From positions 1 through 37,506 of IMG/VR virus record IMGVR_UViG_3300020403_000034: a stretch of DNA of 37,506 bases. The stretch is one strand, 5' to 3'. A program made the position numbers and the translations under genes. The notes beneath the pieces were generated by a model. The model was not told where the DNA came from. It searched no databases and worked only from the letters and a program-made list of their open reading frames with translations. Source of the DNA: a virus. Lineage: Duplodnaviria > Caudoviricetes. The stretch's first letter is position 1; every line of letters starts with the position of its first letter. Below, piece by piece: positions 1 to 37,506 of the stretch.

Positions 1-125
1 CTTGTAGATTCGATTGTTATTTTTAGATCTGTTTCTGCTGGTGTTACAGTAGAAACATTTACACTACCTGGCTCTGCACATGCAGTAATCAAAATAGCAA
101 TCATAATTGTAATTAAATATTTCAT
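1..125 (-). CDS. Partial lipoprotein (runs off left edge); possible spanin or other envelope lipoprotein
   Basis: Not in ORF track. ATG at 123-125 with upstream AAGGAGAG. Translates MKYLITIMIAILITAC-AEPGSVNVSTVTPAETDLKITIEST..., a signal peptide with lipobox ITAC. Follows the tail fibre and a holin-like gene. Confidence 0.65.
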   Translation of the reverse strand, partial: MKYLITIMIAILITACAEPGSVNVSTVTPAETDLKITIEST

Positions 126-134
126 AATCTCTCC

Positions 135-329
135 TTATATGTTTTGTATTACGACTAAGACAGTCCCACCTAGGACTGAAAATAATGTTGCAAATAAAAG
201 ATACTCTAATCTTTTTACTCTGCTTAAAGTTTCTATTGATAGACTTTCACATGATCGTTGATGGTCCATAAGAGCTTGTTCTAGGACAGCCACTTTCTTG
301 TCTATATCTGCAACAGTTGTTCTAGGCAT
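135..329 (-). CDS. Small coiled-coil protein with C-terminal TM helix (XhlA/holin-like)
   Basis: 64 aa; amphipathic N-terminus (VAVLEQAL...RVKRLE) then hydrophobic YLLFATLFSVLGGTVLVVI; start overlaps the upstream stop; position after tail genes. Confidence 0.55.
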   Translation of the reverse strand: MPRTTVADIDKKVAVLEQALMDHQRSCESLSIETLSRVKRLEYLLFATLFSVLGGTVLVVIQNI

Positions 330-763
330 TATGGAGCATCCACTTGTGTAACTTCGCCTGTTGCACTTACTATTGTTTTGCTTCCATCTTGATAGGTTAT
401 AGTTCTTCCCAAGTTACCAGATGGCTCTGGCATTTCTTGTCCTTCTTCTGTTGGGAGTTCAATTGGATCTTCTTCTACATTAGATACAACAAACTTAGGA
501 TTTAAAGTAAAACCATCTTCTGGTGTATAACAATATTTAAAACTTTCAAAATCTTCTGGTAAGTCATGTGATGCACCCATATGTATGTCTGCATTTTCTA
601 AATTTAGATCTGAATAAAAAAAGAAGAATTGATTTGCTTCGTCTGATTTAAGACCTATTTTTTTTTGATCACTTTCATTTGTATGTTCTTCAATAGTAAT
701 TCCATCTTCAACATTACAAACCACTTGATTTGCTTCTTTCATTGTTAATAAATTTGGCATCAT
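329..763 (-). CDS. Hypothetical protein, probably tail-fibre associated
   Basis: 144 aa acidic ORF with GGAG RBS, directly downstream of the fibre chaperone. Confidence 0.55.
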   Translation of the reverse strand: MMPNLLTMKEANQVVCNVEDGITIEEHTNESDQKKIGLKSDEANQFFFFYSDLNLENADIHMGASHDLPEDFESFKYCYTPEDGFTLNPKFVVSNVEEDPIELPTEEGQEMPEPSGNLGRTITYQDGSKTIVSATGEVTQVDAP

Positions 764-769
764 TATCTC

Positions 770-1051
770 CTATAAAAAATCTGGTTTAGTTGGAAACTCA
801 ACATCTGGAAAACCTTCTTGTGCTGGTAAATCTCTTAATGCTTGTCGATATGTTGTAGCTTCGGTCTTTTGTTCATCTGTTAAAGGGCTATCAGAAGCTA
901 ATGCCCAATCAGTATCTTTTAACAATATGTTTCTATCTAATCTAAAATCTTTTTTTCTATCTTCTAAAGTCGCATCTTCATCTGGTGTAATAGTTACATC
1001 TATATCGACATATTGTTTTGTTGTTGCATTATATACTCTTTGTGTTGCCAT
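770..1051 (-). CDS. Tail fibre assembly chaperone
   Basis: Motif RNILLKDTDW...DSPL...YRQALRDLPAQEGFP..FPTKP is typical of phage tail assembly chaperones; directly after the fibre gene. Confidence 0.85.
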   Translation of the reverse strand: MATQRVYNATTKQYVDIDVTITPDEDATLEDRKKDFRLDRNILLKDTDWALASDSPLTDEQKTEATTYRQALRDLPAQEGFPDVEFPTKPDFL

Positions 1052-1060
1052 AATTTTCTC

Positions 1061-4000
1061 CTAACCTATAATTGCGTAAACTGATATTACGCCCTCCGTA
1101 ATTGCTACGCTTTGTACTGCTTGGCTGTCATTTCCTACATAAAAATAAAACCCATCTGCATAATTTGTAGTTGAGTTTGTGCTACTTGCAGAATGTGTGT
1201 ATATACCTTTTGCGTGATGATTGTTACCACTACCATACCTCCATGAAGAGACATTATGAAAACTGCCATTTTTTAAAGAATTTGTATAAACACCATCACC
1301 CGTTAGCTGTCCTCCATGACCTGAATTGTTATCATAAGTTTGTTTTTCTTGATTAGGTGTATTTGCACTATACAAATCATAAGTGGTTGAATTCCAATTA
1401 ATTATAAATGCAGTAGATTGTGTTTTACTGTTATTTGATGGATTACCAGAATTTGTTTGTATTTTAACAAAAGTATTATATGAAATATTATAAACACTTG
1501 ATGAACCATTGTAAGGTAACATACATAAAAAATTACCATCTGAAGCAAAGCCTATGCCATGATAATGTATTTCATACGACCTTACATTAGATGCGGTATA
1601 ATCTGATGGTAAACTAATTAAAACATTTTGTGCTGTGCTAGAACCATCTACTCTAAAATCATAAGAACCACAGAATATTCTAGCGTCACTACTACCACCA
1701 CCACCAGAGACTTCTTTTGAAGGTAATCTTAAATTAGTTGTGTGAATAGCTTCACCAACAAATGGGTTATCAGGATCATTGTAAATACTTGCATCTGGAG
1801 TTGTAGCTGTAGACAATGCTCCTGTTGAGCTTACATAATATTTTGTACCATGTGTTAAAGATGATTGGTTTTGTTCAATACTTTCACTGTCAAATGGTAA
1901 CACTGAAATTGTACTACCAGCACTACCACCTTTTTGAGCAAAGCCAAATGCCAAAGCTTTATTTGTACTGTTTGTCGTTAAGGTATGAGGAATGTTACCA
2001 GCACTATAAAAAGAATTTTGACCATTAGCAGACAGTGATGAATATGTTGAAGTATCAGTGTCGTTTATCTGTAACCATTTACCAGCATTAGCACTTGTAA
2101 TACTTGAAATAGACATAGTATCAACAATAGCTAAAGCCCTTCCCCATTGGTAAGCATTACTATTACCTCCACCACTTACAGCACTGTCTTGTGTTATACC
2201 AGTTCCGTCTGGAATATAGATACGCATATGTTGACCTTGACCGACTTGATGCAAGTTATGTGAAGAAGGAATAATGTAGCGATCATTTAAATAGTCATAA
2301 TGAAAAGATTGTACTGGTGCAGAATGATGTGAAGAGTTTGTGCTATTATGATTTATAACAGTTTGAATTGTTAAAGATGATGCTCCCATACTTATAGCAA
2401 GCCATTTAGCTCCATAGCTTGTGCTTGGCGAATAATAGGTATGTCTGTAAGAAAATAAAACTCTACCTTTACCATCAGCTTTTTGGAATTGGCTATACCA
2501 CTGAGCATTGTTATCAAATGTTCCATTGTTATTATCTGTTGTTAATTGTTCTGTGTATTGTGGTGTCCATGTTGGAGAGCTTGATGTTCCTGTATTTTCC
2601 CATACAGTAAATCTATTTCGTCTATTATTATCTAACCAAAAAGTACCAAGCCTTCCTGTCGTATAATCATACATAACTCGAACAGGTCTTGGCGTTGATG
2701 TATTCTGTGATGAGTTCCCATTTATACTTGTGAAATATTGTCTGCTTGTATAATTTTGTTGGTATGCTGATCCAGTCCATGTTATTTCGTTAGTAGCCAT
2801 TACAAAATATGATGCATAAGGATGTGTCCAATATACATAATGTTGACCAGCAGTAACAAGTGTTGCTTTATCAGTTGTCATACTTATTACAGATGTATCA
2901 GTTGTAAAATATGCCGATGATGTAGCATTTGGCATGCCTGACGGACCTTGAATAATTGCCATTCTGTTATAAAGAGTAACATGATCATTTGCATCAATAG
3001 TCATGGGTGTTACATATCTATTCATATTTCCAGCACTGTGATTATAATGCCAAATAATTAAGTAAGTTCCACCAGCAGATGCGTTCATATTTTTTTGCCA
3101 ACGAAGATAATGAAGACTTGCTTCTCCGTTAAAATTACCTCCAGCTCCTTGAAAGGCTGGACCACTTGTGTAGGTACTGTCTGGGGTAGAAAGGCTTCTG
3201 TTTTGTCCTGTGTGCGTTGACCAAGTTGATGACGCACTATCGTAATTAAAAATCTGAATACGAGTATGAGTTCCAGCTCTATAGACAATAATATATTTTC
3301 CACTGTCATTTGCTATAGCATCAGCATGTCCTGGATATTGTGCGTAGTAAGATGATGATCCACTCCAATCGTAACTACCACTTGGCATAGCAGTATTAAC
3401 TGTTGCTTGTCCTAAAGCTAAATTTTGAGTTGTTGTTGTTTTCTTAACTTTAGCTGTTTCGCCATTACTTTCTCTTGTTACAACATTACCAACAGATATA
3501 GCATCTGATCCAGATGCAACAACCATATTGATAGCATCAGTACCAGAGGATAACCCTGTTAAGTTAGATCCATCGACTGCTGGTAGTTTTGCATTACCAT
3601 CAAGTTGAGGAATATTATTTGCGCTTGTACCAACATTTAAAGTTGATGCTGTTCCAAGACCTAAGTTGGTCCTAGATGTACCAGCATTAGCAACATCAGA
3701 TAAATTATTATTAGCTGATAAGAAACCACCAGCACTGAAAGAAGCTTGTCCCCATGCAGATCCACTCCAAACATAAAGCTCATCATTGGATGAGTTAAAA
3801 TACAATGTGCCTTCGTATGTAGCATCAAGATTATTACCATCATTGTCTGTTGTTGGAGGTGATGATTTAGATCCAAGATATTGTTTTTCAAAGTTGGTTA
3901 AATTTAATGCACTTGCTGTAGCAGAATTTGAAGATGCTGTTGCAGAATTAGATGAATTTGTGGCATGGGTACCAGCAGTATTACTATGACTAAGAGCTGT

Positions 4001-4819
4001 AGCAACATGATTACTTGCAGTATTGCTATGGGTTAAAGCATTTGCTTCGCTAGTTGCACTAGCTGTCGCAGAATTTTGAGAAGCCGTAGCAGAATTTTGA
4101 GAAGCAACAGCAGAGTTTTGGGATGCTGTAGCGGAAGCAGATGCCGATTCACTATCCACCAATAAAGTATATTTAGATGCATTAGGATTAGTTGTTAGGG
4201 GCTGGGACCCAGAGGATGTGTGTGTACTGTTAACTTGAAAGACATTATTTGTAGATGTGTCTTTAACAAGATCTCTTTCATTATAATCTGTGCCTGAAGC
4301 CCAGTTACCTCTATTAGTCCCAATACTTGTAGCAATTGAAATATCGCCAGATGAATCAAAAGCAAATAATTTGTTAGCTCTGTCAGTTGCGTCATTAGTA
4401 AATTCAGTTGAAGAAATGGTATTTGTTACAGAAGCTTTGATGGATCTATCGACTTCTTCCTGTAGCTGTTGCACATGCATTGTAAGACGATCTAAACCTT
4501 CCTCGTGGGACTCGGCTGGGAAAGGATCATTCTCTACATAATCATGTGTTTGAGTTAAAGGTACTACTCTTTGTATTATTACAGTCTCACCATTAGCTGG
4601 TGTGTTGCCACCAGTAAAAGTTACATTACCACCAGAAGCAGATCCTACACCTGATACATTATAATGAGTTGTAATTGTTTTTAAGGTTTCAGTTCCAGTA
4701 GCAGATCTTATGTAAACTTTAAGATCTGAGCTTGCTAGTATTTTAAAGTTATAAGCAAAGACAGTTGTATTGCCGTTACCTGAAAACGATACCTTGTTTG
4801 ATGTTGTTGATAATGTCAT
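1061..4819 (-). CDS. Tail fibre / receptor-binding protein (1252 aa)
   Basis: N-terminal T7 gp17-like anchor (SGNGNTTVFAYNFKI...EEGLDRLTMHVQQLQEEVDRSIK); Ser/Ala/Thr-rich coiled stalk; NNLSDV..RTNLGLGT fibre motif; long beta-rich distal region; chaperone follows. Confidence 0.9.
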   Translation of the reverse strand: MTLSTTSNKVSFSGNGNTTVFAYNFKILASSDLKVYIRSATGTETLKTITTHYNVSGVGSASGGNVTFTGGNTPANGETVIIQRVVPLTQTHDYVENDPFPAESHEEGLDRLTMHVQQLQEEVDRSIKASVTNTISSTEFTNDATDRANKLFAFDSSGDISIATSIGTNRGNWASGTDYNERDLVKDTSTNNVFQVNSTHTSSGSQPLTTNPNASKYTLLVDSESASASATASQNSAVASQNSATASQNSATASATSEANALTHSNTASNHVATALSHSNTAGTHATNSSNSATASSNSATASALNLTNFEKQYLGSKSSPPTTDNDGNNLDATYEGTLYFNSSNDELYVWSGSAWGQASFSAGGFLSANNNLSDVANAGTSRTNLGLGTASTLNVGTSANNIPQLDGNAKLPAVDGSNLTGLSSGTDAINMVVASGSDAISVGNVVTRESNGETAKVKKTTTTQNLALGQATVNTAMPSGSYDWSGSSSYYAQYPGHADAIANDSGKYIIVYRAGTHTRIQIFNYDSASSTWSTHTGQNRSLSTPDSTYTSGPAFQGAGGNFNGEASLHYLRWQKNMNASAGGTYLIIWHYNHSAGNMNRYVTPMTIDANDHVTLYNRMAIIQGPSGMPNATSSAYFTTDTSVISMTTDKATLVTAGQHYVYWTHPYASYFVMATNEITWTGSAYQQNYTSRQYFTSINGNSSQNTSTPRPVRVMYDYTTGRLGTFWLDNNRRNRFTVWENTGTSSSPTWTPQYTEQLTTDNNNGTFDNNAQWYSQFQKADGKGRVLFSYRHTYYSPSTSYGAKWLAISMGASSLTIQTVINHNSTNSSHHSAPVQSFHYDYLNDRYIIPSSHNLHQVGQGQHMRIYIPDGTGITQDSAVSGGGNSNAYQWGRALAIVDTMSISSITSANAGKWLQINDTDTSTYSSLSANGQNSFYSAGNIPHTLTTNSTNKALAFGFAQKGGSAGSTISVLPFDSESIEQNQSSLTHGTKYYVSSTGALSTATTPDASIYNDPDNPFVGEAIHTTNLRLPSKEVSGGGGSSDARIFCGSYDFRVDGSSTAQNVLISLPSDYTASNVRSYEIHYHGIGFASDGNFLCMLPYNGSSSVYNISYNTFVKIQTNSGNPSNNSKTQSTAFIINWNSTTYDLYSANTPNQEKQTYDNNSGHGGQLTGDGVYTNSLKNGSFHNVSSWRYGSGNNHHAKGIYTHSASSTNSTTNYADGFYFYVGNDSQAVQSVAITEGVISVYAIIG
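4062..4130 (-). repeat. Three 21-nt tandem units encoding heptads SA[TV]ASQN in the fibre stalk
   Basis: gcagaattttgagaagc at 4068 and 4089, with variant gcagagttttgggatgc at 4110. Confidence 0.75.
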
Positions 4820-14193: not shown

Positions 14194-16757
14194 TATTTCT
14201 CAAATGTTTGTAATCGTGGATAAATAGATAAAATTGTTAATGGCAAAGGCTGATCACTAACAACAAATATAAAACCATCGCTGTCATACCCAGAGGTAAA
14301 CTCAATTGTTTTGTCTCCAGTGTAAAGATCTAATGGCTGGTCCATAGCATCAGATGAGCTTCTAAAAGGAATAAGATCATTAGTTGCCAAACTTTGTCCA
14401 ATCTTTAATCCAACAGTCCTAAACAATCTAATTGTTACATCATAGATCCTTTTTGTTTTACCTTGTGATGTTCCTAAAGTTGCACCAGCATCTACTCGCA
14501 TAGTCTGAAGTGTAGATGTATATTTTAATCCAAAGTGAACAGTTTTTGCAGATCTATTTAAAGTAACAGATCCACTAGACACAACAACATCAGGATGCGT
14601 AGATCCGTCAGCTAGTACCGATAATGTTTGTCCCTCTAAATGACCAAGACCAGAGAAGGATGTAAAAGCATTTGATGTGTAAGATGATAATCCAGAATCA
14701 ACAAAGAAAGCATCTTTTACATCAGTTCCAAAATCAAAAAAGTTAAATCGTTCAACAAATCTTTTTGTTGCTCCATTTATTGTTCTTTTTACGACAACAT
14801 AAATATCGTCTTCATCTAACTCACCAGGGATAGTTGCAATACTTTCTACTACACCATAATTATAAGTTACATTAGGAGACACAGAAGTATCAGTCCAAGA
14901 TCCTCCAAGAGTATGTTCATGCCATGCAACAATATTTTCTTCCCTTCGGTAAGTCATGCATGCAAGTTTTCCATTATTTAAAACACACCAAATTGTGTTA
15001 TCTGGCTCTTGAGCATGTGCCATTTCTTTTATGCCAGATGCCGTTATATGCTCTGCCATGATCGTTAAATCTGGAGCTGTATATGAATCTGTATCAAAAC
15101 TATAAACTAGCTCTCTAACCTTCCTTCTTGCTCGTTGTACAAACAAAGTAACATTACCTACTTGTATAGGGCTGACATTCGATGTTCCATAATAGGCTTG
15201 TCTTTTTATCTGTGCAGATGTTGGTGATAATGGTGCATCAGATCCAGAGGATCTAACAGCAAACTCACCACCAGATGTTCCAACAAGAAGAGAGCTACTT
15301 GATGATAAATATCGAATAACATTTACCTGATTAGATCCTATTGTATAGATTAATCCATCGTCATCAGCTACACCAGATGCAAAGTTTTCAAAGTCTCCAC
15401 CTTTACTAAAAAATAAAGTTTGAGGATTTGAATTTGTTCCAGCTAAAACTAATCTTTCTTCATAAAATGCTATTGCTCTTGGATAACCAGTTGTTGATGA
15501 GAATGCTCCCAATGACCAATCTAAATCATCTTCTAAAGCACCATTAATTGATATAGCAGATCCAGAATTTGCATTAACTAAATCATCGGATGGTGCTAAT
15601 AAAATTGTATCTTCTGTAGCTTGTACAATTAATTTTGGAGGATAACTTGAGCTTCCTATTGTTGCATTGTTTTGAACATCTGAAGCTCCAGCAACCTCAA
15701 TAGACATTCCTGTTTTAAATCCTTCCGTAACAAAATTTTTATCACTATTAACTATTCTATCATTATGCTCTAGCCCAGTTGAAGATGGATCACCCTCTGC
15801 AAAACTAATTTTACTATTACTAATGAATGGCATTAGCTCTGTTCTATTGTCTTCATTTTCTTGGATAGTTGTATTGACAGAAGTTAAGCTTGTAACAGTA
15901 GCACCAGAGTTATGCGCTACGGCTGTTGTACCTAATTGTCCTCTTTGCACTCCATTGTTTACAGATCCTCCAGACATAGAGTTATATTTTATAATCTCAT
16001 CACCGATCTTAAAATATCCACCAGGACTGTCTGTTTGAAATCCTGTGTTGCTTGCAATATTAAATGAAGTAGCTGAGTTGCTTATGCCAGATGATAATGT
16101 TGTTGTTACTAATGATGTAATCTTTGTAATACCATCATGGACCTTAATAAGTCTTCCTACATCGGTACTTAAAAATCCTTGACCATCGTTTATGCCAACA
16201 ACATCACTTGCATAAATAAAAGCAGTACCAGTACGACTAGAAGCTCGCATAGTAGTTGCAGTTAAATTAATATCCATCATTGGACCATTTTTGAAAATAA
16301 CTTCAGTCAAGGTCCAGTTAATGTGACTTGTTCTTGTAAGTTTTCTAACAGGATGATCTGGATGTACTAGATACATAACATCGGCAGATTGAACAAACTT
16401 AATGTCAGATAATTGTGCAGATGTGTATGTTGTAGCTGTTTCGACAATGGTGTTACCGCCATCAACAATAATTCCACCATCACGATAAAAACGAATATAG
16501 TTGTTACCAAACTCTAAGATATAAGTTTGCGTAACATTAAACTCAAAAGGAATAAGACGAACAGCATTTGCAGAAGATTTTACTTCATTAACAAATATAG
16601 TTCCTGGTCTTCTTGATACACCACCATGAGGATGCACAAGTAAATTTTTCATTTGAGTAGCACCAGTGAAATATTTTTCTAAGTCAGTTCTACCTGACAT
16701 TTTTTCACTTAACTCTCCAGATGTAAAAGCATTAAATGATGGTGAAGATTTTGCCAT
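14193..16757 (-). CDS. Tail tubular protein B / nozzle (854 aa)
   Basis: FTSGELSEKMSGRTDL, HGGVSRRPGT, LEFGNNYIRFY, FVQSADVMYLVHP, GYPRAIAFYEERL, VAWHEH, QPLPLTILSI motifs. Confidence 0.92.
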   Translation of the reverse strand: MAKSSPSFNAFTSGELSEKMSGRTDLEKYFTGATQMKNLLVHPHGGVSRRPGTIFVNEVKSSANAVRLIPFEFNVTQTYILEFGNNYIRFYRDGGIIVDGGNTIVETATTYTSAQLSDIKFVQSADVMYLVHPDHPVRKLTRTSHINWTLTEVIFKNGPMMDINLTATTMRASSRTGTAFIYASDVVGINDGQGFLSTDVGRLIKVHDGITKITSLVTTTLSSGISNSATSFNIASNTGFQTDSPGGYFKIGDEIIKYNSMSGGSVNNGVQRGQLGTTAVAHNSGATVTSLTSVNTTIQENEDNRTELMPFISNSKISFAEGDPSSTGLEHNDRIVNSDKNFVTEGFKTGMSIEVAGASDVQNNATIGSSSYPPKLIVQATEDTILLAPSDDLVNANSGSAISINGALEDDLDWSLGAFSSTTGYPRAIAFYEERLVLAGTNSNPQTLFFSKGGDFENFASGVADDDGLIYTIGSNQVNVIRYLSSSSSLLVGTSGGEFAVRSSGSDAPLSPTSAQIKRQAYYGTSNVSPIQVGNVTLFVQRARRKVRELVYSFDTDSYTAPDLTIMAEHITASGIKEMAHAQEPDNTIWCVLNNGKLACMTYRREENIVAWHEHTLGGSWTDTSVSPNVTYNYGVVESIATIPGELDEDDIYVVVKRTINGATKRFVERFNFFDFGTDVKDAFFVDSGLSSYTSNAFTSFSGLGHLEGQTLSVLADGSTHPDVVVSSGSVTLNRSAKTVHFGLKYTSTLQTMRVDAGATLGTSQGKTKRIYDVTIRLFRTVGLKIGQSLATNDLIPFRSSSDAMDQPLDLYTGDKTIEFTSGYDSDGFIFVVSDQPLPLTILSIYPRLQTFEK

Positions 16758-16759
16758 TA

Positions 16760-17350: not shown

Positions 17351-17366
17351 AATAAATCCTTATGTA

Positions 17367-17399
17367 AATATGGGAGGAGCAATCGCTTCCTCCCATATT
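17367..17399 (-). terminator. Strong hairpin after the capsid genes (terminator or mRNA stabiliser)
   Basis: 12-bp inverted repeat aatatgggagga (17367-17378) / tcctcccatatt (17388-17399); U-tract is short. Confidence 0.65.
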
Positions 17400-17408
17400 C
17401 TTTAGTTA

Positions 17409-17843: not shown

Positions 17844-18701
17844 CTATTCAGCACAGTTGATTTGTACGACTTTTGATTCTTCCATTCTGGTAGCACCAAA
17901 GTCAGCACAATAATAAACTTGAGTTGAGTATGACTTGTCTGCTCTTTCCTCGATTCGAGAAGTTACATTTTTGCCAACACCCAATAGAAGACCATCTTCA
18001 GCCCATGCAAAGCATTTTCTGTCAGATCCGTCTAAACCAAGTCTATTGGTTACGATAAATTTGAAGCCTACAAATGAATCAATTTCACCAGTTGATAGAG
18101 CTTTAACAGTGTTAAAGTCTGAGCTAGTTACTGTTGTTGAATTTAATAGGTCTTCAATTTGCTCTGGAGAAACAGCAATATATCTTGTGATAGATGGATC
18201 AACATTTCCTTCATCAAGTTTCTTTTTAGCAGAAACAAGTTTCGCAATTGTTAAACCAGTACCACCAGTTGCTATAACATTACCACCAGGCAATGCTACA
18301 GAAGATGATCCAGTTTTTCCAGTTAAGGCTGATCCTGTTGCACTTGTAATAATAGCATCATCCATAGCTCTACCCATTGCACCAGCCATAGCTTTTGCAT
18401 AAGTAGAAGAAGGATCTGTTAATAGACGGACTTTATCAGCATCGTCTATTAAATCAGCTACTTCATAAGTTGAAGTGAGGACCATGCGCCTAGCATGAGG
18501 AGTTTCAATTAAAGGTGTATCTGCGTGACGAGATGTTCTTAATTGAGCTGTGGTGCTTCCCACTTGATCAAAAAATGCTTTTTCGCCATTGATAGATTCT
18601 TCTCTAACTGCACCCCTAAGTAAGCTTACTTTCTGTTGAGAAAGAAGCTGAATATTTGCACTAAATTGTTGTACAAATGCTGTAGTAATTTGATTAGACA
18701 T
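17844..18701 (-). CDS. Major capsid protein
   Basis: MSNQITTAFVQQFSANIQLLSQQK, RTSRHADTP, SSDFNTVKAL, ERADKSYSTQVY, GATRMEESKVV: BPP-1/HTVC010P-type capsid protein. Confidence 0.93.
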   Translation of the reverse strand: MSNQITTAFVQQFSANIQLLSQQKVSLLRGAVREESINGEKAFFDQVGSTTAQLRTSRHADTPLIETPHARRMVLTSTYEVADLIDDADKVRLLTDPSSTYAKAMAGAMGRAMDDAIITSATGSALTGKTGSSSVALPGGNVIATGGTGLTIAKLVSAKKKLDEGNVDPSITRYIAVSPEQIEDLLNSTTVTSSDFNTVKALSTGEIDSFVGFKFIVTNRLGLDGSDRKCFAWAEDGLLLGVGKNVTSRIEERADKSYSTQVYYCADFGATRMEESKVVQINCAE

Positions 18702-19749: not shown

Positions 19750-19992
19750 TTATTTTTCAGCTTGTTTACCAATTTCTCCCATAGCTATGAGAAATAACAC
19801 TACAGATCGCTGACCTTCTGCATATGCTAATTCGTGTGAATCTATTGTGCCTGTTTTGACTGTTGTTGAATTGTAATGAAATCTTTTTTTCAAATCATCG
19901 AGAACAATTTGACCAATCGCATTTTCACTAAAATTTGCATACATTACATGCATTCTTTTTAGTTCTTCTTCAGGGCTTACTATATCTTCCAT
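19750..19992 (-). CDS. Conserved small head-morphogenesis protein (BPP-1 Bbp19-like)
   Basis: GQIVLDDLKKRF...AYAEGQRSVVLFL motif; directly after the portal. Confidence 0.8.
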   Translation of the reverse strand: MEDIVSPEEELKRMHVMYANFSENAIGQIVLDDLKKRFHYNSTTVKTGTIDSHELAYAEGQRSVVLFLIAMGEIGKQAEK

Positions 19993-21654
19993 TTAGATCT
20001 CCTCTGTGTCCATTTGGTTAACAGCTTCAATCATAGGAGCTGTATTTTTTGCCACCTCAGATTGTTGCATCTGTTGTTGCATTTGCTGTTGAGCTTGAGC
20101 TTGTTGTTGTTTCTCGTTTCTCTTAGCTTGTATTTCATCTTCTGATCGTATTACTGAAGCTGGTATTGATAAGCTTTTTAATAAATGTTTAATTAAGCCA
20201 TCACCATCTAAGTGATCAATAATACTAGGATCTATTTGAGCTACTGGCTGGACTACCTGAAGCATCTGAAGTGTTGATTGAACATCTGTCTGTCTTTGTG
20301 CTTTAGCTAATGGAGATACATATTCAATATCAATATCCTGACCAGCAATAATTTGCGGTGGTGGAGGTAACTGTTCTTGTCTCAATAATATATTGTAACA
20401 TCTGTTAATAAGGGGCTGGAGCAATTCAGCTTGCAATCTCCCCAAGACTGGACCAAGAAGTCTCATTTTTTCTTCGGTCCTTGCAACCACCTCAGTAGCC
20501 GTCATTTGAGGACCAGCCCCCATGACCAATTGATCGACATAAAACGCAGATCTTATCGCTTGCCGTCTTTGGTCTTCCATTTGCAGACCAAGAGGATTAT
20601 TAGATCCAGTTTGTAAAGGCTCTAGTCTATCTCTTGTTCCACTTCTGTAGAAATTTAAACCACCTGGTACAGTTCTTATTGGTAACATAAAACCATCGTC
20701 AGGTAGCATAAGAGGAGGATCTACTTGTTTCTCAGCAGATCTAATAGTTACTTCACTCATCTTGTTTAACATTTTAACATCAGGTAATGATTGCATAGCT
20801 GGAGATCTTCCATAACCACTTTCAAAACTTGCTTTTAAGTATCGTGGACACATGTAAGGAAACTCATCAAAACCAGATTCTTTAATAATTACTTTTTCTT
20901 CTGGATCTATATAGATAGACGCAAAAGGTTTATTTTCAGCAGATAGTTTTTCTACATCTCTATCATCTCTTGGCATTACAACATGAACAATCTCAATCTC
21001 TTCATAGGGATTTGTTTTCATTAATTTGTTAATACGAGAAGACGCTTCTTCACCAAAAAGTTTTTGAGCAGAACGAACAGACATTTTATATTTTCTATAA
21101 ACTGTATCGACTCTGCCTTCGCTATTCTCAGCTAAGAAGCATTCAGAAATATGTCTAGTTTCAAAACGAAAACCAGATTCAGGATTACTTTCTACATAAA
21201 TGACGGCTGTACCAAAAGTAATAAGATCGTGGTAAAGTTCATGGATCTGTTCTTGAAAGTTAGATCTATGAAAATGAGCATACATAATGTTCTCTACTTC
21301 TTCTAACCATTCTTTTGCTTCATCAATTAAAGTAAGCTGAAAGTTCATGTAACATAAATTAAACCAGTTAGTTGATGCAGAAGTTAACATGCCATGAATA
21401 GATGCTGATAAAAGTTCAGAAGAATGTATTGCAGTACCATCGTAGATCTTTTCCATTCTCTTATCACCAGCAGATCGTGTACGAGTAAAATCTGCTTTTC
21501 TTGGTACAATGTAGTCAGCAACATCTTGCCAATGTTCTTCCCAAGTTTCTCTTTGCTCTTCTAAAGAAGACAGCCTATCTAAAAGTTTAGAAGCTATTTT
21601 TTTTGTATCTTCATTTATAGATGGCTCTACATCTATTATTTCTTCATCAGCCAT
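19993..21654 (-). CDS. Portal / head-tail connector
   Basis: WEEHWQDVADY, IYDGTA, YGRSPAM..LPDVKMLN, QMTATEV..R.EEKMRLLGPVLGRLQAELLQPLI, IEYVSPLAKAQR. Confidence 0.95.
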   Translation of the reverse strand: MADEEIIDVEPSINEDTKKIASKLLDRLSSLEEQRETWEEHWQDVADYIVPRKADFTRTRSAGDKRMEKIYDGTAIHSSELLSASIHGMLTSASTNWFNLCYMNFQLTLIDEAKEWLEEVENIMYAHFHRSNFQEQIHELYHDLITFGTAVIYVESNPESGFRFETRHISECFLAENSEGRVDTVYRKYKMSVRSAQKLFGEEASSRINKLMKTNPYEEIEIVHVVMPRDDRDVEKLSAENKPFASIYIDPEEKVIIKESGFDEFPYMCPRYLKASFESGYGRSPAMQSLPDVKMLNKMSEVTIRSAEKQVDPPLMLPDDGFMLPIRTVPGGLNFYRSGTRDRLEPLQTGSNNPLGLQMEDQRRQAIRSAFYVDQLVMGAGPQMTATEVVARTEEKMRLLGPVLGRLQAELLQPLINRCYNILLRQEQLPPPPQIIAGQDIDIEYVSPLAKAQRQTDVQSTLQMLQVVQPVAQIDPSIIDHLDGDGLIKHLLKSLSIPASVIRSEDEIQAKRNEKQQQAQAQQQMQQQMQQSEVAKNTAPMIEAVNQMDTEEI

Positions 21655-21655
21655 A

Positions 21656-23752
21656 TTATGATCCCACTAAAGTTTTTCTGTTTACACTTCCACCGAGTAA
21701 AGAAGCAGTACGAGTTTTGTTTCTAAAATTAGGTCCCCTAGTCTGACCTTGCCTAACTTGGTTTGGATCCTCGTCACCTATACGAACAACATCTTTAGGT
21801 GCAAAGAAAGATCCAGTAGATTGTTTTTTCTTCTTATCTTTTTTAGCTTTCGCTGTATTAATTTTAAGTTCTTCTGTTGTTGTTCCCCATGCTTCAGCAA
21901 TTTGCTCTAAGCTTAATCCATATGCTGAAAGATCCAGATCTTCATTAGCTAACCAGAACGAAGTTACATATTCTTGATCCGTTCCTCTAGCATCTAAAAT
22001 CATTTGCTGAACAAGGAAGTTTGTTACACTAAGGTCTTGTTTTCCAATAGCATCTCCACCTACACCATAGGTCCATACACCATCAAGCTTCCAGGAGTAA
22101 TCGGTTAGGTAACGCATAGCTTCTTCAGGTGTAAGAGTTCTACCCTCTCCATAAACAAGCTCAATAAGATTACCTAAGTTTTCGTATTGACTATGTTCAG
22201 TAATATTATCGAGACTCCATTTTTGTGAGTTATCTAATGAAGACTCAAACAATACAGATTCAGCTAACCAGTCAGCTAAGAATTGGTCCAGATCTGCTTC
22301 TGCTATTTGACCATTATATTGACCAGTATATTCTTTAACGAGTTCAAAATAATCGCCCATTGTTTTAGAAGACATGATTACACCAGTTGTTTCACCTTGC
22401 TCAATCATAGTGTTCCAGAAAGCTGTAAGCCTTACTTGATCGTCTTCTGTCAAAGATCCGTTTTCGCCTGTAGCAAATAAACCAGAGATCTCGTTATAAT
22501 ATCCAACAAGCTCTTCTGTTGTGTCGGATCCTGTATTAACTAATATTGTCTCTAATGTCGTTACAACAGTATCGTATTCATCCTGTGTTAATCCTGTATT
22601 GCCAACAGTGTTAGTATCACCATCGCCATCACCATCACCATCGCCATCGCTAGATCCAGTTGTCTGATCTGTTAATGCTTTACCTTCGCTATCGACTACC
22701 TGACCTTTTTCATTAAAATAAAATATAGGTGCTTGGCTCATGCCTGTAATTTCATTTGATGGTAAGACATAAACAAATCCTTTTGATCCGTCAGCAAAAG
22801 TATGTTCTTGAATAAGAGTTGCCATCAAGCCATTGCCTTCGCCATCCATATTGGTAATACCATCTGGAATACCATCGCCATTAAGATCCTCTGATCCTGT
22901 ATTCCAAACATGATCCTCACCAAGAGTAGTAGCCATGTTGACAAACACTTCATCGGTACTCGCTGGCACTGTATTAAGACCAGCATAATCTACACCAGTA
23001 AACTGATCAGCATTAATTGTTTCTACTTCAGCTCCAGTTGAATCTTCAATTCTATAGGTATCTATTTCGCCATCATTATTGCTATCAAATCCATAAGCAA
23101 GATTGCCATTATTTAATTCAATTGGCTCAGTATTAATTGTCGATACATTTTCAAGTGTATCGTTACCAACACCACCAATAATAGAATCCTCACCAGATCC
23201 ACCAACAATACTATCGCTATCTATAGGTCCTGTGGCTGGGGTTCTTGTTCCATCCGATATACCAATAAATTTTCCGTCTTTTGTATAGTCATAGCTAACT
23301 GTTGTCTCACCCTCACCACCAAAGTCAGTAAGATCTATAACACTGGTTTGCGTATAACTGCCATCAGTGTTTTGGGACCAGCTTGATCCTGGAACATTGT
23401 TATTAATAGATTGCCAATTAGGATCTAATACAAAATCAGGTGTTACAGATTCAACATCAATGTTACCAGAAACACCAGTATTATCACCACCAGCAATTTG
23501 AGGAGTGTCAGTAGTTGTCTCATTTGAAACAGTAGAGAGTAAAGTGGTGTCAAGACCAGTTGTTTTAGTAATTGAATTAGCATCTATTTGATCCTCATTT
23601 GTGGTTACAACATCATCAGGGCTTACTGCACTATCATTGCTTATTAAAGATCCACCAGAAGAAGATACAGCATTAGCCGTTTGATTATTCGGTCCCATTA
23701 ATAAATTGGGATCTATTCCTGAAAGATCTATCCCTAATCCTGTTGTACTCAT
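21656..23752 (-). CDS. Large acidic protein (698 aa) with RTX-like and DxDxDG calcium-binding motifs and a basic C-terminal tail
   Basis: Long ORF between terminase and portal; GGSGEDSII-GGVGNDTLE, DSNNDGEID, DLNGDGIPD, (DG)n; ends RTASLLGGSVNRKTLVGS. Confidence 0.7.
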   Translation of the reverse strand: MSTTGLGIDLSGIDPNLLMGPNNQTANAVSSSGGSLISNDSAVSPDDVVTTNEDQIDANSITKTTGLDTTLLSTVSNETTTDTPQIAGGDNTGVSGNIDVESVTPDFVLDPNWQSINNNVPGSSWSQNTDGSYTQTSVIDLTDFGGEGETTVSYDYTKDGKFIGISDGTRTPATGPIDSDSIVGGSGEDSIIGGVGNDTLENVSTINTEPIELNNGNLAYGFDSNNDGEIDTYRIEDSTGAEVETINADQFTGVDYAGLNTVPASTDEVFVNMATTLGEDHVWNTGSEDLNGDGIPDGITNMDGEGNGLMATLIQEHTFADGSKGFVYVLPSNEITGMSQAPIFYFNEKGQVVDSEGKALTDQTTGSSDGDGDGDGDGDTNTVGNTGLTQDEYDTVVTTLETILVNTGSDTTEELVGYYNEISGLFATGENGSLTEDDQVRLTAFWNTMIEQGETTGVIMSSKTMGDYFELVKEYTGQYNGQIAEADLDQFLADWLAESVLFESSLDNSQKWSLDNITEHSQYENLGNLIELVYGEGRTLTPEEAMRYLTDYSWKLDGVWTYGVGGDAIGKQDLSVTNFLVQQMILDARGTDQEYVTSFWLANEDLDLSAYGLSLEQIAEAWGTTTEELKINTAKAKKDKKKKQSTGSFFAPKDVVRIGDEDPNQVRQGQTRGPNFRNKTRTASLLGGSVNRKTLVGS
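22616..22651. repeat. 6-nt tandem repeat (atcRcc) x ~6 encoding SDGDGDGDGDGD
   Basis: atcacc atcgcc atcacc atcacc atcgcc atcgct read directly. Confidence 0.85.
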
Positions 23753-24285: not shown

Positions 24286-25579
24286 TTGCCTTCATCCTTT
24301 TATCAGATCCAAGAGGATCCCATTTATTATCAGCAAAGCTTTGTGGGGCTTGCTGGACTTGTTGTTGTTTTAAACCTACTGCCATATAGCGAAATGCATC
24401 AGCTCCGTGGCTGGTCCAATCATGGACTGGTGTAGCTCGGAAAGTTCTGGTCCTTTCATTATAGGCTCGGTGATAATGTCGGAGGGCTTCAATACCTTCC
24501 TTACAGTTCTTAATATCAAAGGTGCATCGAGGTAACATCATCTTCACGGCATGGATCCCATCCTCCAGGGGAAGCTTCGGAACAACCCTAAAATTTATTC
24601 CTAGATCATAAGCTACTTCTCTTCTGGATCTTCCTGTACCAAGTTCTCGGACCTCAATATCATGTGGTGCATTGTGGGTGCCGTATAAATAATCTTTCTC
24701 TTCAAGTACATGAACGAAATGCGGAAGACCTTCGTTTCTAACTTCATAATAATCTATTACCGATACAGCTCCACCTCTGGATGTTTGTGCAAACCAAATA
24801 GCGGTACTATCGTTTAACCCAAGATCCCAATAAGTATCGACACGCAAAGAAGGATCATAAGGACAAGTTGTGATTTTCCCATTCTCTTGTAGCTCCTCCA
24901 TCTCCGATCCGTAGATAGATCCTGGTATATTTGCTACCCAACTACATTCAAATTCCTGATTGTACTGATCTGGGGACATTGTTTGAGAAGCTTGTCTCAA
25001 TTCCTCTTCATCTAATATATTTGTTTCACTAGCCTTATATAAAGCCGTATACCATTCAGGCTGTTGTTCTCCATTTTCATAAAGATCAAAAAACATATTA
25101 TGACCTTTAGGAGTCCCAATAAAATAACAGAAACCTTTTCTATCGGATAAAGCTGGTCTGATAACCTCTGGAAAGACACTCTCTGGCATGTCAGCTACCT
25201 CATCGATAACACAACCATCTAAATATATACCTCTAAGGCTATCTGGGTTTTCCGATCCTAGTAGAGTTATTCTAGCTCCATTTGGTAGATCGCATCGTAA
25301 TTCCGTTTCATTATATTTTATGTTGGGAATCTTACTGGTAAATTGTTTTATATAATCCCATGCCACCGATTTAGCTTGTCGATATGTGGGAGCTATATAT
25401 GAAAATCTAGGATTCTTTTTTTCGCTAAGAATACTTGCTCGCAATAAATGATTTATAGCCATAACAGTTTTACCAAATCTTCTATGGCAAACTATTACAG
25501 CCCATCTATGTTTATCTAACTCCTGGTGCAGATCATTCTGCAATGGTCTGGGAGTATATGGTATAACTACCTCAGTCAA
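24278..25579 (-). CDS. terL: Terminase large subunit
   Basis: Walker A HRRFGKT, LRGIYLDGCVIDE Walker B, IGTPKG, nuclease WDLG and HGADAFRY. Start placed at TTG 25579 with GAGGAG 9 nt upstream, not at 25693. Confidence 0.95.
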   Translation of the reverse strand: MTEVVIPYTPRPLQNDLHQELDKHRWAVIVCHRRFGKTVMAINHLLRASILSEKKNPRFSYIAPTYRQAKSVAWDYIKQFTSKIPNIKYNETELRCDLPNGARITLLGSENPDSLRGIYLDGCVIDEVADMPESVFPEVIRPALSDRKGFCYFIGTPKGHNMFFDLYENGEQQPEWYTALYKASETNILDEEELRQASQTMSPDQYNQEFECSWVANIPGSIYGSEMEELQENGKITTCPYDPSLRVDTYWDLGLNDSTAIWFAQTSRGGAVSVIDYYEVRNEGLPHFVHVLEEKDYLYGTHNAPHDIEVRELGTGRSRREVAYDLGINFRVVPKLPLEDGIHAVKMMLPRCTFDIKNCKEGIEALRHYHRAYNERTRTFRATPVHDWTSHGADAFRYMAVGLKQQQVQQAPQSFADNKWDPLGSDKRMKAIG

Positions 25580-33083: not shown

Positions 33084-34292
33084 TTATAAACTAGCCACCA
33101 TATCTAATGTGGCTTGGTCTTGGTAATCCCTTAAAGCAATCAAGTGAGCATAAACTCTTTCAGTAGTTGCTATCTCAGAATGTCCAAGCAACATTGAAAT
33201 CTTTTTCATGTTATCTTTTGATTCACCTTCAGTTAGGATCAGCTTACTTGCAACATAATGTCTTAGGCTGTGCCATGATAACGGAACAGCTCCACTTTTC
33301 TTAATTGAATGTTTAAGAATATAAGCAAGTGTATCGTAAGTAGCTGGTACACCTTCATAGTTATAAGTTGATGAAGAAGCACCACCATAAGCTCTAAATC
33401 TTTCACCATATCTTGTAGCGATTCTTTGATCGTTCTGGCTGTACTTAGTCTCCATCTTCCAAACTAATAATAATTTTTTAAGATCTGGATTTAAAGGAAT
33501 CTTTCTGCCAGAAACATAACTAGATTTTCTTAACTTATCAGCTTTAGTTCCCTCACCTTCAGATATGTTTTTATTAATAGTGATAAGGTTTTTTTCAAAA
33601 TCAACATCATCCCATGTAAGAGCAAGTTGCTCACCAGCTCTCATGCCAGTCTTAATAGCCATCAAAAACATCAGCTTTGAAAATGTATCATCATAAACAT
33701 TTTCAAAAATTAACTGGATGTTTTCTTCTGAGATACTTTCAACATTAAACTCTTTTGAGTCGTCATCAAATAATGTAGCAATCATTCTTGAAGTGTACGG
33801 AGCAGTAGTCATGTATCTGTCATTCATGCACCAAGAAATAAATTTCAACATCATTGCGTGATAATTTTGAATAGTCTTTCTAGTCTTACCTTCAGATTTA
33901 AAATCTCTATAAAACTTTGCGACATCACTTACAATAACATCATCAGCAATCTTCTTACCTAAAGAATGTTTTTTGATAAGCTTACCTAAATAAACAATCC
34001 TGTTGTATTGATCCCTTGCTACTTTATTTTCATTGTACCTAGGCTCAACATGGCTATGAATATAAATAGCAAAAACTTCATTTACAGTTTTTTTATTTGA
34101 TTTAGGAATAATCTTATTAGTAAGTTTATTTTTATAAATCTTGTCAGCTTCTTCTCTGGCAAGAGATCTGGTTTCAAAATATGTATCTTTATATTCAGCC
34201 TTTAAATCAACATCTTCAAAAAGGATGGTCCAAGCAGACCATCCCTTTTTTACTCTTGATTCTCTTTTAGTAATTTTATAAGGAGATCTCAT
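33084..34292 (-). CDS. int: Tyrosine integrase
   Basis: KTGMRAGEQLALTWDDVDF (R), HSLRH, LLGHS...TTERVYAH (Y); 402 aa. Confidence 0.95.
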   Translation of the reverse strand: MRSPYKITKRESRVKKGWSAWTILFEDVDLKAEYKDTYFETRSLAREEADKIYKNKLTNKIIPKSNKKTVNEVFAIYIHSHVEPRYNENKVARDQYNRIVYLGKLIKKHSLGKKIADDVIVSDVAKFYRDFKSEGKTRKTIQNYHAMMLKFISWCMNDRYMTTAPYTSRMIATLFDDDSKEFNVESISEENIQLIFENVYDDTFSKLMFLMAIKTGMRAGEQLALTWDDVDFEKNLITINKNISEGEGTKADKLRKSSYVSGRKIPLNPDLKKLLLVWKMETKYSQNDQRIATRYGERFRAYGGASSSTYNYEGVPATYDTLAYILKHSIKKSGAVPLSWHSLRHYVASKLILTEGESKDNMKKISMLLGHSEIATTERVYAHLIALRDYQDQATLDMVASL

Positions 34293-34981: not shown

Positions 34982-35174
34982 AGTGTTGCATATGGTGTTG
35001 CGGGCAGGAAAACAGCAGAAAACTGGTAGTCCCTAGGGGAATCGAACCCCTAAACTAATGTTTTGTAGTCTCATTTAGTGCAGAATACAAGCATTTAATG
35101 TTTTGTAGTAACAGCTAGTAACTCTTAGTAAAGTGTTGCAGATGGTGTTGTAGAAATGTTTTTTCGCAACACCA
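34982..35174. mobile_element. attP region with arm-type and accessory repeats
   Basis: AGTGTTGCA[T/G]ATGGTGTTG at 34982-35000 and 35132-35150, inverted CGCAACACCA at 35165-35174, TAATGTTTTGTAGT at 35056-35069 and 35096-35109, all around a tRNA fragment. Confidence 0.85.
35024..35051 (-). other. att core: 3' 28 nt of a tRNA (probably tRNA-Glu); not a full tRNA gene
   Basis: Minus strand AGGGG-TTCGATT-CCCCT-AGGGACT-A-CCA = T arm, acceptor 3' strand and CCA. The T arm resembles proteobacterial tRNA-Glu; no 5' half is present. Confidence 0.85.
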
Positions 35175-35179
35175 AATTT

Positions 35180-35371
35180 TTAATAGTTAGATTTCTTCTG
35201 TTTTTTTCTTGGCTGTGCAGATGTTCTAACTACACCTTTTGTCTTGCCACGATCAGCAATTCTTTGAGCTGGTGAATTAGATTTTGTTCCACTTGGTAAA
35301 GCAGATCCACCTACTCCAGCAGTCTGTCCTTGCTTCTTTCTTCGCTGTGCAGATCCTAATAATGTTGTCAC
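35180..35371 (-). CDS. Small basic protein (63 aa)
   Basis: GTG start overlapping the upstream TGA, AGGAG RBS; Lys/Arg/Gly-rich; begins MTTLLGS. Confidence 0.65.
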   Translation of the reverse strand: MTTLLGSAQRRKKQGQTAGVGGSALPSGTKSNSPAQRIADRGKTKGVVRTSAQPRKKQKKSNY

Positions 35372-36519
35372 TTTATTACTCCTTTTTTTCTATAATCATC
35401 GTTCATTAATTTTAAAATATTAGCTCCATATTCTATGTCGCTGTAGATCTTTATTCTGTTCTGTTGAGTTGTAAATGGATCTATTACAATCAGTCCAGCA
35501 TGTCCGTAATCTTGTCTGGCAAAACCATGCTGATCTGCATATGAATCTATATCTTTAAATCCTTTTACTCTTAGCATGTGAGCTGGGCTTTTAAATCCTG
35601 TCTCATAGTTTGATTTATTAGTTGATGGCATTTCCATTGATGCGTAATTATGTCTGTGTCCAGCAACATATATATCTGCATTAGTGTTAAATAGATTTGC
35701 CTTTTGCAGTCCATGAAGGGGAGAAAATTGAGAATTACCTGGGAAGTCATGGCGGAAATCGGCTTTGACTGATACACCATTTGGAAATTGAAAATCTATA
35801 TTAGCTCTCCAATCTACTGCAAGTGTTCCAGATGCTTGTGCAAACCAATCCATCTTATCATAGTTAATATTATCTGGATTCCACATATCATGGTTACCAC
35901 GGATTAATAGAATAAAATTAATTTCTTCAATTAAATATTCAATGACCTTGTACACCATTGACTTACTCATTTTTTGCTCGATGTAGTATCTGCTTAATCT
36001 CGAAATCCAATTGTTGTGTGAATCTCCAATGTTTACAGAATAAATTGGGTTTTCAGATCCTCTGTCTGGATCATACTTTTTTAAGGTTTCTATTAAAGAT
36101 GTAAGTACATCCCAATTTGCTCCACCATCGTCTAAATGTGGATCACCCCATACGCATATTCCTGTAACAAGATCTTTAGAAAACTTTACTGGGACCAGCT
36201 CAAGTAAATCATCTTTTTCTTTTTTCTTTTTCCAATTTTTATGAGCATAAGAAATAATTTCTTTGGCAGACATCTCTTCATGATTTTGCATCTTTTCAAG
36301 ACCAGGGATTGTATAATACTGATGATCCGTCTCATCCCTTTGCATCTTAATAATATGTCTGGCTGACTTCAACCTACCTTTTAATTGATCGATAGTTAGA
36401 TCCATTGATAAAGCTAGATCTGATTGTTTTTTCCAAGGCTTATTACGACCTACTTGCTTTGCTTTTGCAACAAGCTCTTCAGCTTCCTCAAATGACATTG
36501 AGTTTGGTGATTTAGCCAT
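35368..36519 (-). CDS. Calcineurin-like metallophosphoesterase with N-terminal HTH-like domain
   Basis: All five motifs: GDPH, IGDSHNN, RGNHD, RH, AGHRH; N-terminal QSDLALSMDLTIDQLKGRL. Confidence 0.85.
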   Translation of the reverse strand: MAKSPNSMSFEEAEELVAKAKQVGRNKPWKKQSDLALSMDLTIDQLKGRLKSARHIIKMQRDETDHQYYTIPGLEKMQNHEEMSAKEIISYAHKNWKKKKEKDDLLELVPVKFSKDLVTGICVWGDPHLDDGGANWDVLTSLIETLKKYDPDRGSENPIYSVNIGDSHNNWISRLSRYYIEQKMSKSMVYKVIEYLIEEINFILLIRGNHDMWNPDNINYDKMDWFAQASGTLAVDWRANIDFQFPNGVSVKADFRHDFPGNSQFSPLHGLQKANLFNTNADIYVAGHRHNYASMEMPSTNKSNYETGFKSPAHMLRVKGFKDIDSYADQHGFARQDYGHAGLIVIDPFTTQQNRIKIYSDIEYGANILKLMNDDYRKKGVIK

Positions 36520-36704
36520 TAATTTGCTTCCACGACTTCATCATTCATTTCATACACAGTACGGCAATCACTATTAGAACATATAAGCTGTGTTATTTTA
36601 TGATCATCCATAGACTGCTCTGCTTCAATATGAAAATCTATAGATCCACATTCTGAGCATCCAAAGATTTCTCTCTTTGCAAAAGTTAAAATATTTTTGT
36701 TCAT
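36519..36704 (-). CDS. Small zinc-ribbon protein
   Basis: CSEC...CSNSDC; GAGGAG RBS; coupled to the phosphoesterase. Confidence 0.7.
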   Translation of the reverse strand: MNKNILTFAKREIFGCSECGSIDFHIEAEQSMDDHKITQLICSNSDCRTVYEMNDEVVEAN

Positions 36705-36952
36705 GCATTCTCCTCACACATCTGTATCGTCTAACTCGTTGGTTAATTTTCTTCTTCGACTACACGATGCAACACAAACATCTGTCGAAGTAAAAGAGAT
36801 CCTCTCGTGGATGAAGTAATTGAAACTAAAGACACAGATTAAACTTATTATGTTGACTGTGATTAGCTTCCAGCTATGGGACAAAGTAAACTAGCTAAGT
36901 TTAATTTTTATCCTGTATTTGCCTGTAAATTTCTATCCATGATAACCTCCCT

Positions 36953-37506
36953 TTATCTATTAATTAAATATAAAATTTCCGATATTTTCATTGCTGTTGC
37001 TTTTGTAGTTTTTAGATCAGGTGTTACACCTTCTCTGTATGTTACTAGCAAAACTCCCCATGCATCTTCGGATGACATTATGGGGCATGCAATATTTGGT
37101 ACATCTCTATCAAGAGAAGTACATTGACTTAAAACAAAATGACCAATGACATATTCGTCACCTTCCATCCAATATCCTGTTGGTAAAAGGTCTGCGCTGT
37201 TTCTTGGCTCAGTAAATAATGGAACAATGTTTCTGGCATCTACCCAATCGTATAACCATATTGAATCAATATCTCTGTCAGATCTTAGAAGCCTAGTCAT
37301 AAGATCCTCTACTTTAGTTTTCTTTTCAGGATCGTTCTCATACACTTCTACTATTGGGATCTCAGTATCTTCTTCAACACCAAGACTGAGGTATTGTTGA
37401 AAACCTATATATCCAATAACAGCTACAATAATAAGGCTTGTAATTTTCATTACAAATGCTGACCAAGATTGCTCTGGTGATATTATTCCTTTTATTGCAT
37501 CAATGA
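36953..37506 (-). CDS. Single-pass membrane protein with GAF-like C-terminal domain; 5' end probably outside the window
   Basis: Frame stays open from 37450 to the edge (...IDAIKGIISPEQSWSAFV-MKITSLIIVAVIGYIGF); TM helix then SIWLYDW...IACPI....AWGVLLVTY, a GAF-like strand pattern. Confidence 0.6.
   Translation of the reverse strand, partial: IDAIKGIISPEQSWSAFVMKITSLIIVAVIGYIGFQQYLSLGVEEDTEIPIVEVYENDPEKKTKVEDLMTRLLRSDRDIDSIWLYDWVDARNIVPLFTEPRNSADLLPTGYWMEGDEYVIGHFVLSQCTSLDRDVPNIACPIMSSEDAWGVLLVTYREGVTPDLKTTKATAMKISEILYLINR

Follow-up and report, generated by a model that had tools for sequence, protein, structure and literature searches.

The genome described here, IMG/VR virus record IMGVR_UViG_3300020403_000034 (Duplodnaviria; Caudoviricetes), was analysed over its whole length of 37,506 bp, referred to below as the window. 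It has a G+C content of 35.2% and carries 40 open reading frames (ORFs) encoding 11,676 amino acids, 736 of which (6.3%) are alanine. According to PHROGs its genes comprise podovirus-type morphogenesis genes, an Erf-like annealing protein and a tyrosine integrase, and the closest named phages are HTVC010P-type pelagiphages, with terminase identities of up to 59%. A first-pass annotation had reported that the word GCNGC and the dipeptide Ala-Ala are missing, had ascribed this to a host defence and had stated that the phage encodes no visible methyltransferase. Indeed none was found among the 40 ORFs compared with PHROGs or the 30 of them compared with Pfam, many of the ORFs being without a family. 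We investigated the loss of GCNGC together with that of a second word, GCN7GC, and of the residue pairs they encode; the features concerned are listed in Table 1. The phage occurs in marine runs from several studies. An assembly artefact is ruled out because contigs from another sample of the same study show 0–2 differences per ~500 nt and because L149, an independent 95% relative, lacks both words as well.

Table 1. Positions of the features discussed in the text, numbered along the window.
Feature	Position	Strand	Observation
Whole phage genome, podovirus-like, temperate	1..37506	.	0 GCNGC, 0 GCN7GC, ~16 further eliminated restriction-type words
Ala-rich tail-fibre stalk	3899..4153	-	heptad SATASQN
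Nozzle ADGS (716-719)	14601..14612	-	AxxA in 50/66 distant homologues and 8/9 covering close relatives; Ser here and in L149
Capsid Ser120-Ala121	18339..18344	-	residue 120 is Ala in 108/108 distant homologues; Ala again in GCNGC-positive G001, L166, L146
Major capsid residues 102-108, AKAMAGA	18378..18398	-	replaces Ala run of homologues (commonest YSRAAAAAMGR); common to whole clade
Portal Ser306-Ala307	20734..20739	-	AA in 105/122 distant homologues; SA across whole clade
Portal AMQS (286-289)	20788..20799	-	AxxA in 87/122 distant homologues; Ser also in L149, L176, L154
Portal AIHS (75-78)	21421..21432	-	AxxA in 100/116 distant homologues and 13/14 covering close relatives; Ser only here and in L149
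Terminase GADA (430-433)	24395..24406	-	AA in 49/80, AxxA in 50/80 distant homologues; GADA across whole clade
Terminase SYIA (98-101)	25391..25402	-	AxxA in 57/65 distant homologues and 10/10 covering close relatives
66-aa phage gene	32523..32723	-	47%-identical homologue in restriction-modification island of candidate-family genome G423
Tyrosine integrase	33084..34292	-	PHROGs and Pfam searches
Predicted attP core, 3' end of tRNA-Glu(TTC) with CCA	35019..35051	-	33-nt exact match in G069, G435, G436; 32-nt in G437, G242

None of GCAGC, GCTGC, GCCGC and GCGGC occurs in the 37,506 bp. Shuffling the order of codons leads to an expectation of 58.4 GCNGC in the coding sequence, and an earlier set of 300 shuffles, in which 3 of the 40 ORFs were mis-stranded, gave 57.9 +/- 6.7 with a minimum of 37; the total avoidance proposed before is thus far from a near-expected count. 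GCN7GC, the site of MwoI (Biopython REBASE list; PMC3458533), is likewise absent genome-wide against 57 expected from codon-order shuffles, while the other spacings between two GC dinucleotides, from N2 to N15, give 33–113 occurrences. Synonymous shuffles of the set with mis-stranded ORFs still expect 10.7 GCNGC and 12.2 GCN7GC. The loss is therefore a property of the DNA, extending to every reading frame, to both strands and to non-coding sequence.

Since alanine is always encoded by GCN, the loss of the two words forbids Ala-Ala (AA) and Ala-x-x-Ala (AxxA) in proteins. The 40 ORFs contain no AA against 49.3 expected, the lowest value among all dipeptides and in agreement with the first-pass annotation, and no alanines at positions i and i+3 against 49.0 expected; alanine pairs at gaps 2 and 4–10 number 44–79. 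Of all spaced residue pairs, AA and AxxA show the largest shortfalls, a pattern that selection acting on proteins or translation against closely spaced alanines, by ribosome stalling, tRNA-Ala supply or a host protease, might also produce. We regard such selection as extremely improbable: out-of-frame and non-coding sites are absent too, alanine occurs at a normal frequency, with AxA in excess (79 vs 49), and sixteen other words without such a protein effect are gone as well. Moreover, proteins of G437, a genome of the candidate host family introduced below, use AA and AxxA freely (567/469 and 541/467). A third residue pair, Trp-Pro, is missing (0 vs 5.3 expected) because GGCC is lost.

The restriction appears in conserved residues of the virion and packaging proteins. 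In comparison to relatives at identities of at least 60%, 16 AA and 45 AxxA sites are all altered in this phage. Distant homologues, de-duplicated by exact sequence only, were scored for the six motifs that the first-pass annotation had named as usually containing AA. Four of these held: AA lies in the aligned stretch of 107 of 109 capsid homologues and is found at terminase SHGADAFRY (49/80), portal IRSAEKQ (105/122) and adaptor EAIASRLASD (68/89). Portal AIHSSELLSAS turned out to be mainly an AxxA case (100/116, with AA in 43/116), and nozzle GTTAVAH corresponds to AA in only 1/32 homologues. The tail-fibre stalk differs in a similar manner between relatives: its heptad reads SATASAS in G002, which has no AA and allows AxxA, and the stalk of G001 has runs such as AAATA.

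We determined the full set of eliminated words with a cut-off of observed/expected at or below a tenth. By this measure 34 of 405 eligible sites of the Biopython REBASE list are eliminated, which reduce to 18 primary ones. Beside GCNGC and GCN7GC these ~16 words include ACGT, GGCC, CCGG, GDGCHC, CMGCKG, CAGNNNCTG, CTGCAG, GGATAC, AGTACT, CCTNAGC, CGWCG, CTTAAG and others. Among 2,040 words of two plus two bases with gaps of 0–14 and an expectation of at least 5, seven are eliminated, all seven palindromes and five of them exact sites of the REBASE list. Among the remaining 6-mers 9/33 palindromes are eliminated in comparison to 15/1,558 others (p=2e-10). Four non-palindromic 5-mers, GAGGC, ACGGT and GGACG with no occurrence and GCAGG with one, are also depleted at Markov expectations of 15–21.

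Other words deviate in the opposite direction or in other lineages. Over-represented in the coding sequence are RGATCY (130 vs 41), GATC (248 vs 128) and AAGCTT (38 vs 13), the excess of the latter two being shared by G001, G002 and G006. A distant branch (L009, L011, L012, L019, L027, L030 and L050) keeps GCNGC and has CCGG, GAGGC, ACGGT, GGACG and GCAGG absent or nearly so, and in the distant relatives L007, L008, L028 and L031 GANTC is nearly absent.

Mapping across related phages, as had been suggested, revealed loss of GCNGC in most of the clade, distant homologues retaining AA. Among close relatives (75–95% identity) GCNGC is missing from G002, G003, G006, G007, L002, L149, L167, L176 and three short loci; it is present in G001 (40 sites, 27 in the tail-fibre region), G004, G005, L146, L166 and three further short loci. 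None of 121 distant loci of at least 5 kb is purged, the lowest ratio to GCN4GC being 0.62 for GCNGC and 0.57 for GCN7GC. Every covering member of the clade, GCNGC-positive ones included, bears the substitutions that replaced AA (AKAMAGA and TTA in the capsid, SA in the portal, GADA and AV in the terminase), and in a portal-plus-capsid tree with 12 outgroups the GCNGC-positive genomes are nested among GCNGC-free ones (supports 92–93; 54 for their own grouping). For both reasons the GCNGC purge is likely to be ancestral to the clade and partly reversed in one branch. The cleanest regain is the return of capsid Ser120 to Ala.

The GCN7GC purge, in turn, is recent: among close relatives the word is absent only from this phage and L149. 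Of 29 GCN7GC sites common to both subclades none is kept, in comparison to 59/87 control sites (N4 31/43, N10 28/44; p=8e-12). AxxA is zero here and in L149 and normal in seven relatives (e.g. 53/54, 58/58 and 75/69). Relatives are partly depleted in GCN7GC (0.45–0.79 of N4/N10); we do not claim an ancestral purge of this word, since no protein-level deficit matches that depletion.

All 21 polarised single-base losses of GCN7GC are non-synonymous, ten of them Ala to Ser, as are all 20 of those in frame. Their spectrum bears on whether the words eroded by mutation, host methyltransferases having marked them with 5-methylcytosine that then deaminates. Several of the missing words are typical 5-methylcytosine sites, C5 methyltransferases are present in 12 of the 25 candidate host genomes, nine of which share one orthologue, and the methyltransferase beside the G437 nuclease described below is a C5 enzyme. 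Only 3 of the 21 losses are C>T or G>A, however, and ten are G>T; the loss is total with non-synonymous changes fixed, and the DNA of G437 keeps both words at observed/expected (O/E) ratios of 0.97–1.01. Erosion by deamination is also at odds with a reciprocal exchange of words between 95% relatives, and we consider it highly improbable. This exchange concerns CCWGG and CCSGG: at 14431–22570, seven of the eight CCWGG of the phage read CCSGG in L149 (94.8% identical), which is without CCWGG as the phage is without CCSGG. As Pro-Gly must be encoded by CCNGG, the two use opposite halves of this word at Pro-Gly. Avoided sets differ between lineages in general (relatives 76–95% identical); G006, for instance, has 62 GGCC and is without GCGC and CASTG.

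A candidate host is indicated by the attachment-site (att) core, which lies upstream of the integrase and is conserved in relatives; its last few bases are a run of T that adds little to the match length. A 27-nt att pattern has matches in 8 of 401 Alphaproteobacteria, three of them low-GC genomes of 1.4 Mb from one family, and in 15 of the 25 genomes of this small-genome family, the only one in its order. From these matches we infer this 25-genome family as the putative host. A second class-level control yielded 0/201, a weak result given genomes of 3–13 Mb. Searching genome contigs with the integrase returned distant relatives only (22–40% identity) and no host. One member of the integrase cluster is labelled as a Flavobacteriaceae metagenome-assembled genome (MAG); the att pattern is absent from one Prevotella genome, the sole member of the Bacteroidota tried. 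A codon-usage correlation with G437 (r=0.98) was set aside, having no control.

Several observations concern the att core itself. In the relative G006 a complete tRNA-Glu(TTC) lies beside it (L164:17948-18022), possibly replacing the target gene. Among the phages the core (35021-35051 in the window) ends in two variants matching two tRNA-Glu variants inside the candidate family, which hints at host shifts within the phage clade. In G425 an isolated second tRNA-Glu 3' end (L283, G425:C25:105-132) resembles an attachment-site scar.

The candidate family carries a variety of restriction-modification (R-M) cassettes. Single genomes have a TdeIII-family cassette (G423), an MvaI/BcnI-family nuclease (G436), which we note beside the CCWGG/CCSGG exchange, Dam with a MutH/Sau3AI-like protein (G424) and a nuclease candidate (G432). 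Most relevant to GCN7GC is a nuclease of 283 amino acids in G437 (L254:638-1486), convergent with an adjoining C5 methyltransferase; the pair lies at ~38.9–41.0 kb of G437:C2. ESM features assign it to the MwoI family (0.95). The local Pfam scan gave nothing for the protein itself, and PF27366 is found on 48 of its 51 homologues, one of them 95% identical. Its structural model (pLDDT 92) matches BglI in Foldseek (E 7e-7) and has the BglI/SfiI fold with Z 18.3 and 17.6, the former at a root-mean-square deviation of 3.1 over 226 aligned residues. The PD-(D/E)XK residues D100, D113 and K115 are invariant in 26/26 sequences with the spacing of MwoI D97, D110 and K112, and K241 and R258 are invariant too. 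Two residues before R258 G437 has Ser, and the 26 rows have Ser, Thr, Ala or Glu, never Arg or Lys. This Ser probably corresponds to MwoI S310 and not to BglI R277, a correspondence based on the spacing to the invariant Arg. The enzyme is therefore predicted to cut GCN7GC rather than GCCN5GGC. It differs from R.MwoI in having no evident long insertion and in its C5 partner, M.MwoI being an N4-cytosine enzyme. Fold, catalytic spacing and the Ser at the putative S310 equivalent are the features it shares with R.MwoI, BglI and SfiI as far as described in PMC3458533. Many of its homologues are marine-looking (55–72%), a similar pair of nuclease and C5 methyltransferase lies on a Vagococcus plasmid, and a MwoI-family match was found in 1 of 400 other Alphaproteobacteria.

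Among the further cassettes, the G432 nuclease candidate could be assigned to no family, and the nuclease of G421/G423 adopts the HinP1I/MspI fold, with no specificity assigned. A dip of GCN7GC in pooled host loci (160 vs 236–291) was discarded, as the loci were redundant and it vanished in 410 kb of G437. The C5 methyltransferase orthologue shared by nine genomes (L255-L266) has a HinP1I/MspI-fold nuclease partner in only two, a case of R-M orphaning. The cassettes at L315, L317 and L318 each adjoin a gene of PD-(D/E)XK-like type, two of these genes carrying PF12705, which suggests a shared mobile unit.

In summary, we consider it likely that every unmethylated site is selected against by type II enzymes of the predicted host family of Alphaproteobacteria, leading to the loss of GCNGC, GCN7GC, ~16 further words, AA, AxxA and Trp-Pro. 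Strains of the family would differ in their R-M cassettes, and a phage moving between them would lack protective methylation against most of the enzymes it meets in the new strain, zero sites meaning full escape. With GCN as the only way to encode Ala, most GCNGC and GCN7GC sites are not silently removable; where the protein forces a site, one Ala of the pair would be exchanged, most often for Ser. Once the pressure is lifted the sites would likely return, as in capsid Ser120, and their return suggests that the Ala substitutions carry a cost. Regarding the first-pass proposal of a GCNGC-targeting defence that changed conserved residues, the frame-independent loss, the replaced residues and the non-deamination spectrum are in its favor. 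It was incomplete in treating one of ~18 words and in missing the AxxA ban; the GCNGC purge, shared by most of the clade, is probably older than this genome.

The same words might be targeted by modification-dependent enzymes of the BisI type, which cut methylated GCNGC, or by BREX- or DISARM-like systems. BisI recognises GCNGC (Biopython REBASE list; PMC4926085), the four 5-mers that were eliminated are neither palindromes nor listed sites, and no gene of the Bsp6I family was found in the 25 genomes. The eliminated words are, on the other hand, mostly palindromic type IIP sites, and the cassettes of the candidate family are pairs of nuclease and methyltransferase with similarity to BglI/SfiI, HinP1I/MspI, MvaI/BcnI and TdeIII. 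We therefore judge selection by such systems unlikely.

A number of findings weigh against selection by type II enzymes of this family. Concerning the host, the att core is also present in five high-GC Alphaproteobacteria, none of the 25 family genomes yielded a capsid homologue that would mark a prophage, and att type and avoided sets do not correspond one-to-one, G005 having the core type of this phage yet keeping GCN7GC. Concerning the enzymes, the MwoI-like gene is present in only one of the 25 genomes; at the base rate a family of this size would hold one ~6% of the time, and several nucleases were examined. The G437 DNA is undepleted in GCN7GC (O/E 0.97; 410 kb of 1.3 Mb), which is expected for a transient cassette but is not supportive. 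The GCNGC R-M system that the first-pass annotation proposed to seek in the att-indicated host did not emerge: PF09504 (Bsp6I family) is in 0/25 genomes, in a search without positive control. GGWCC (43 vs 30) and GATC are not avoided despite the TdeIII-family and Dam with MutH/Sau3AI-like cassettes, and GAGGC, ACGGT, GGACG and GCAGG are not among the listed REBASE sites and are exceptions to the palindrome pattern. Concerning the GCNGC reversion, of 11 regained AA sites that could be scored, only 5 agree with the consensus of distant homologues, including three within one Ala run, and recombination could mimic it, the tree being built from two genes. Published surveys point in the same direction: in the parts available, PMC6286503 reports that temperate phages seldom eliminate sites and PMC8919816 that intact R-M pairs are rare in pelagic MAGs.

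Restriction-site avoidance is already well known. The present case resembles that described by Rusinov et al. 2018 (PMC6286503), in which orthodox type II, mostly palindromic sites are fully eliminated in double-stranded DNA phages; it differs in that an integrase and att core place this phage in the class for which elimination is less frequent, and in that phages usually have an excess of GCNGC according to the same passages, which make no mention of amino-acid effects or synonymous change. A review of codon usage (PMC8410138, in the sections available) cites lambda and EcoRI for full escape only at zero sites and describes avoidance of R-M sites inside genes, as seen here; it treats avoidance as mainly synonymous, a non-synonymous share being one that 'cannot be excluded', in contrast to the wholly non-synonymous in-frame losses found here. 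HTVC010P-type pelagiphages (PMC8477408, in part) have a G+C content of 29–36%, and their subgroup II carries an integrase with a tRNA core like that of this phage. HTVC010P matches 12 of the 40 proteins, in morphogenesis and packaging (capsid 65%, terminase 59%, portal 54%), and is also without GGCC, CCGG and CGNCG. It keeps 61 GCNGC and 73 GCN7GC, however, and Lederberg keeps 74 and 100; the HTVC010P type has a SAR11 host; the att core here points to the 25-genome family.

We found no report of proteome-wide AA or AxxA loss in the literature, mostly open papers without their supplements, and GCN7GC is absent from the main text of PMC11954522, whose supplements may list such a specificity. A DNA-level defence would here impose a rule of helical spacing on all proteins of a phage, excluding Ala pairs at i,i+1 and i,i+3. 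Close relatives supply the states before and after, so that the fitness cost of restriction avoidance becomes testable at named residues, and a missing word can be linked to one particular nuclease, open to cloning, of a candidate host that is uncultured. The findings suggest that streamlined pelagic bacteria may exert far more restriction pressure at the population level than single MAGs show. Somewhat short of an even chance, in our estimate, is the wider possibility that this temperate clade follows a changing stock of ~20 restriction cassettes, spread over the population of a streamlined marine family of Alphaproteobacteria, with conserved residues of capsid, portal and terminase first replaced and later regained. 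In that case missing spaced pairs such as AxxA could reveal the specificities of enzymes in uncultured hosts; here they would point to a GCN7GC system with C5 methylation, and to enzymes not yet described that act on GAGGC, ACGGT, GGACG and GCAGG.

Two further regions of the genome differ in their conservation. Upstream of the portal gene lies an acidic, repeat-rich protein of 698 amino acids (21656-23752), which is without a family and fast-evolving (53–72% in relatives). The region 35368-37450 encodes a calcineurin-like phosphoesterase and a membrane-anchored unknown protein of 165 amino acids, and is 88–97% conserved in relatives.

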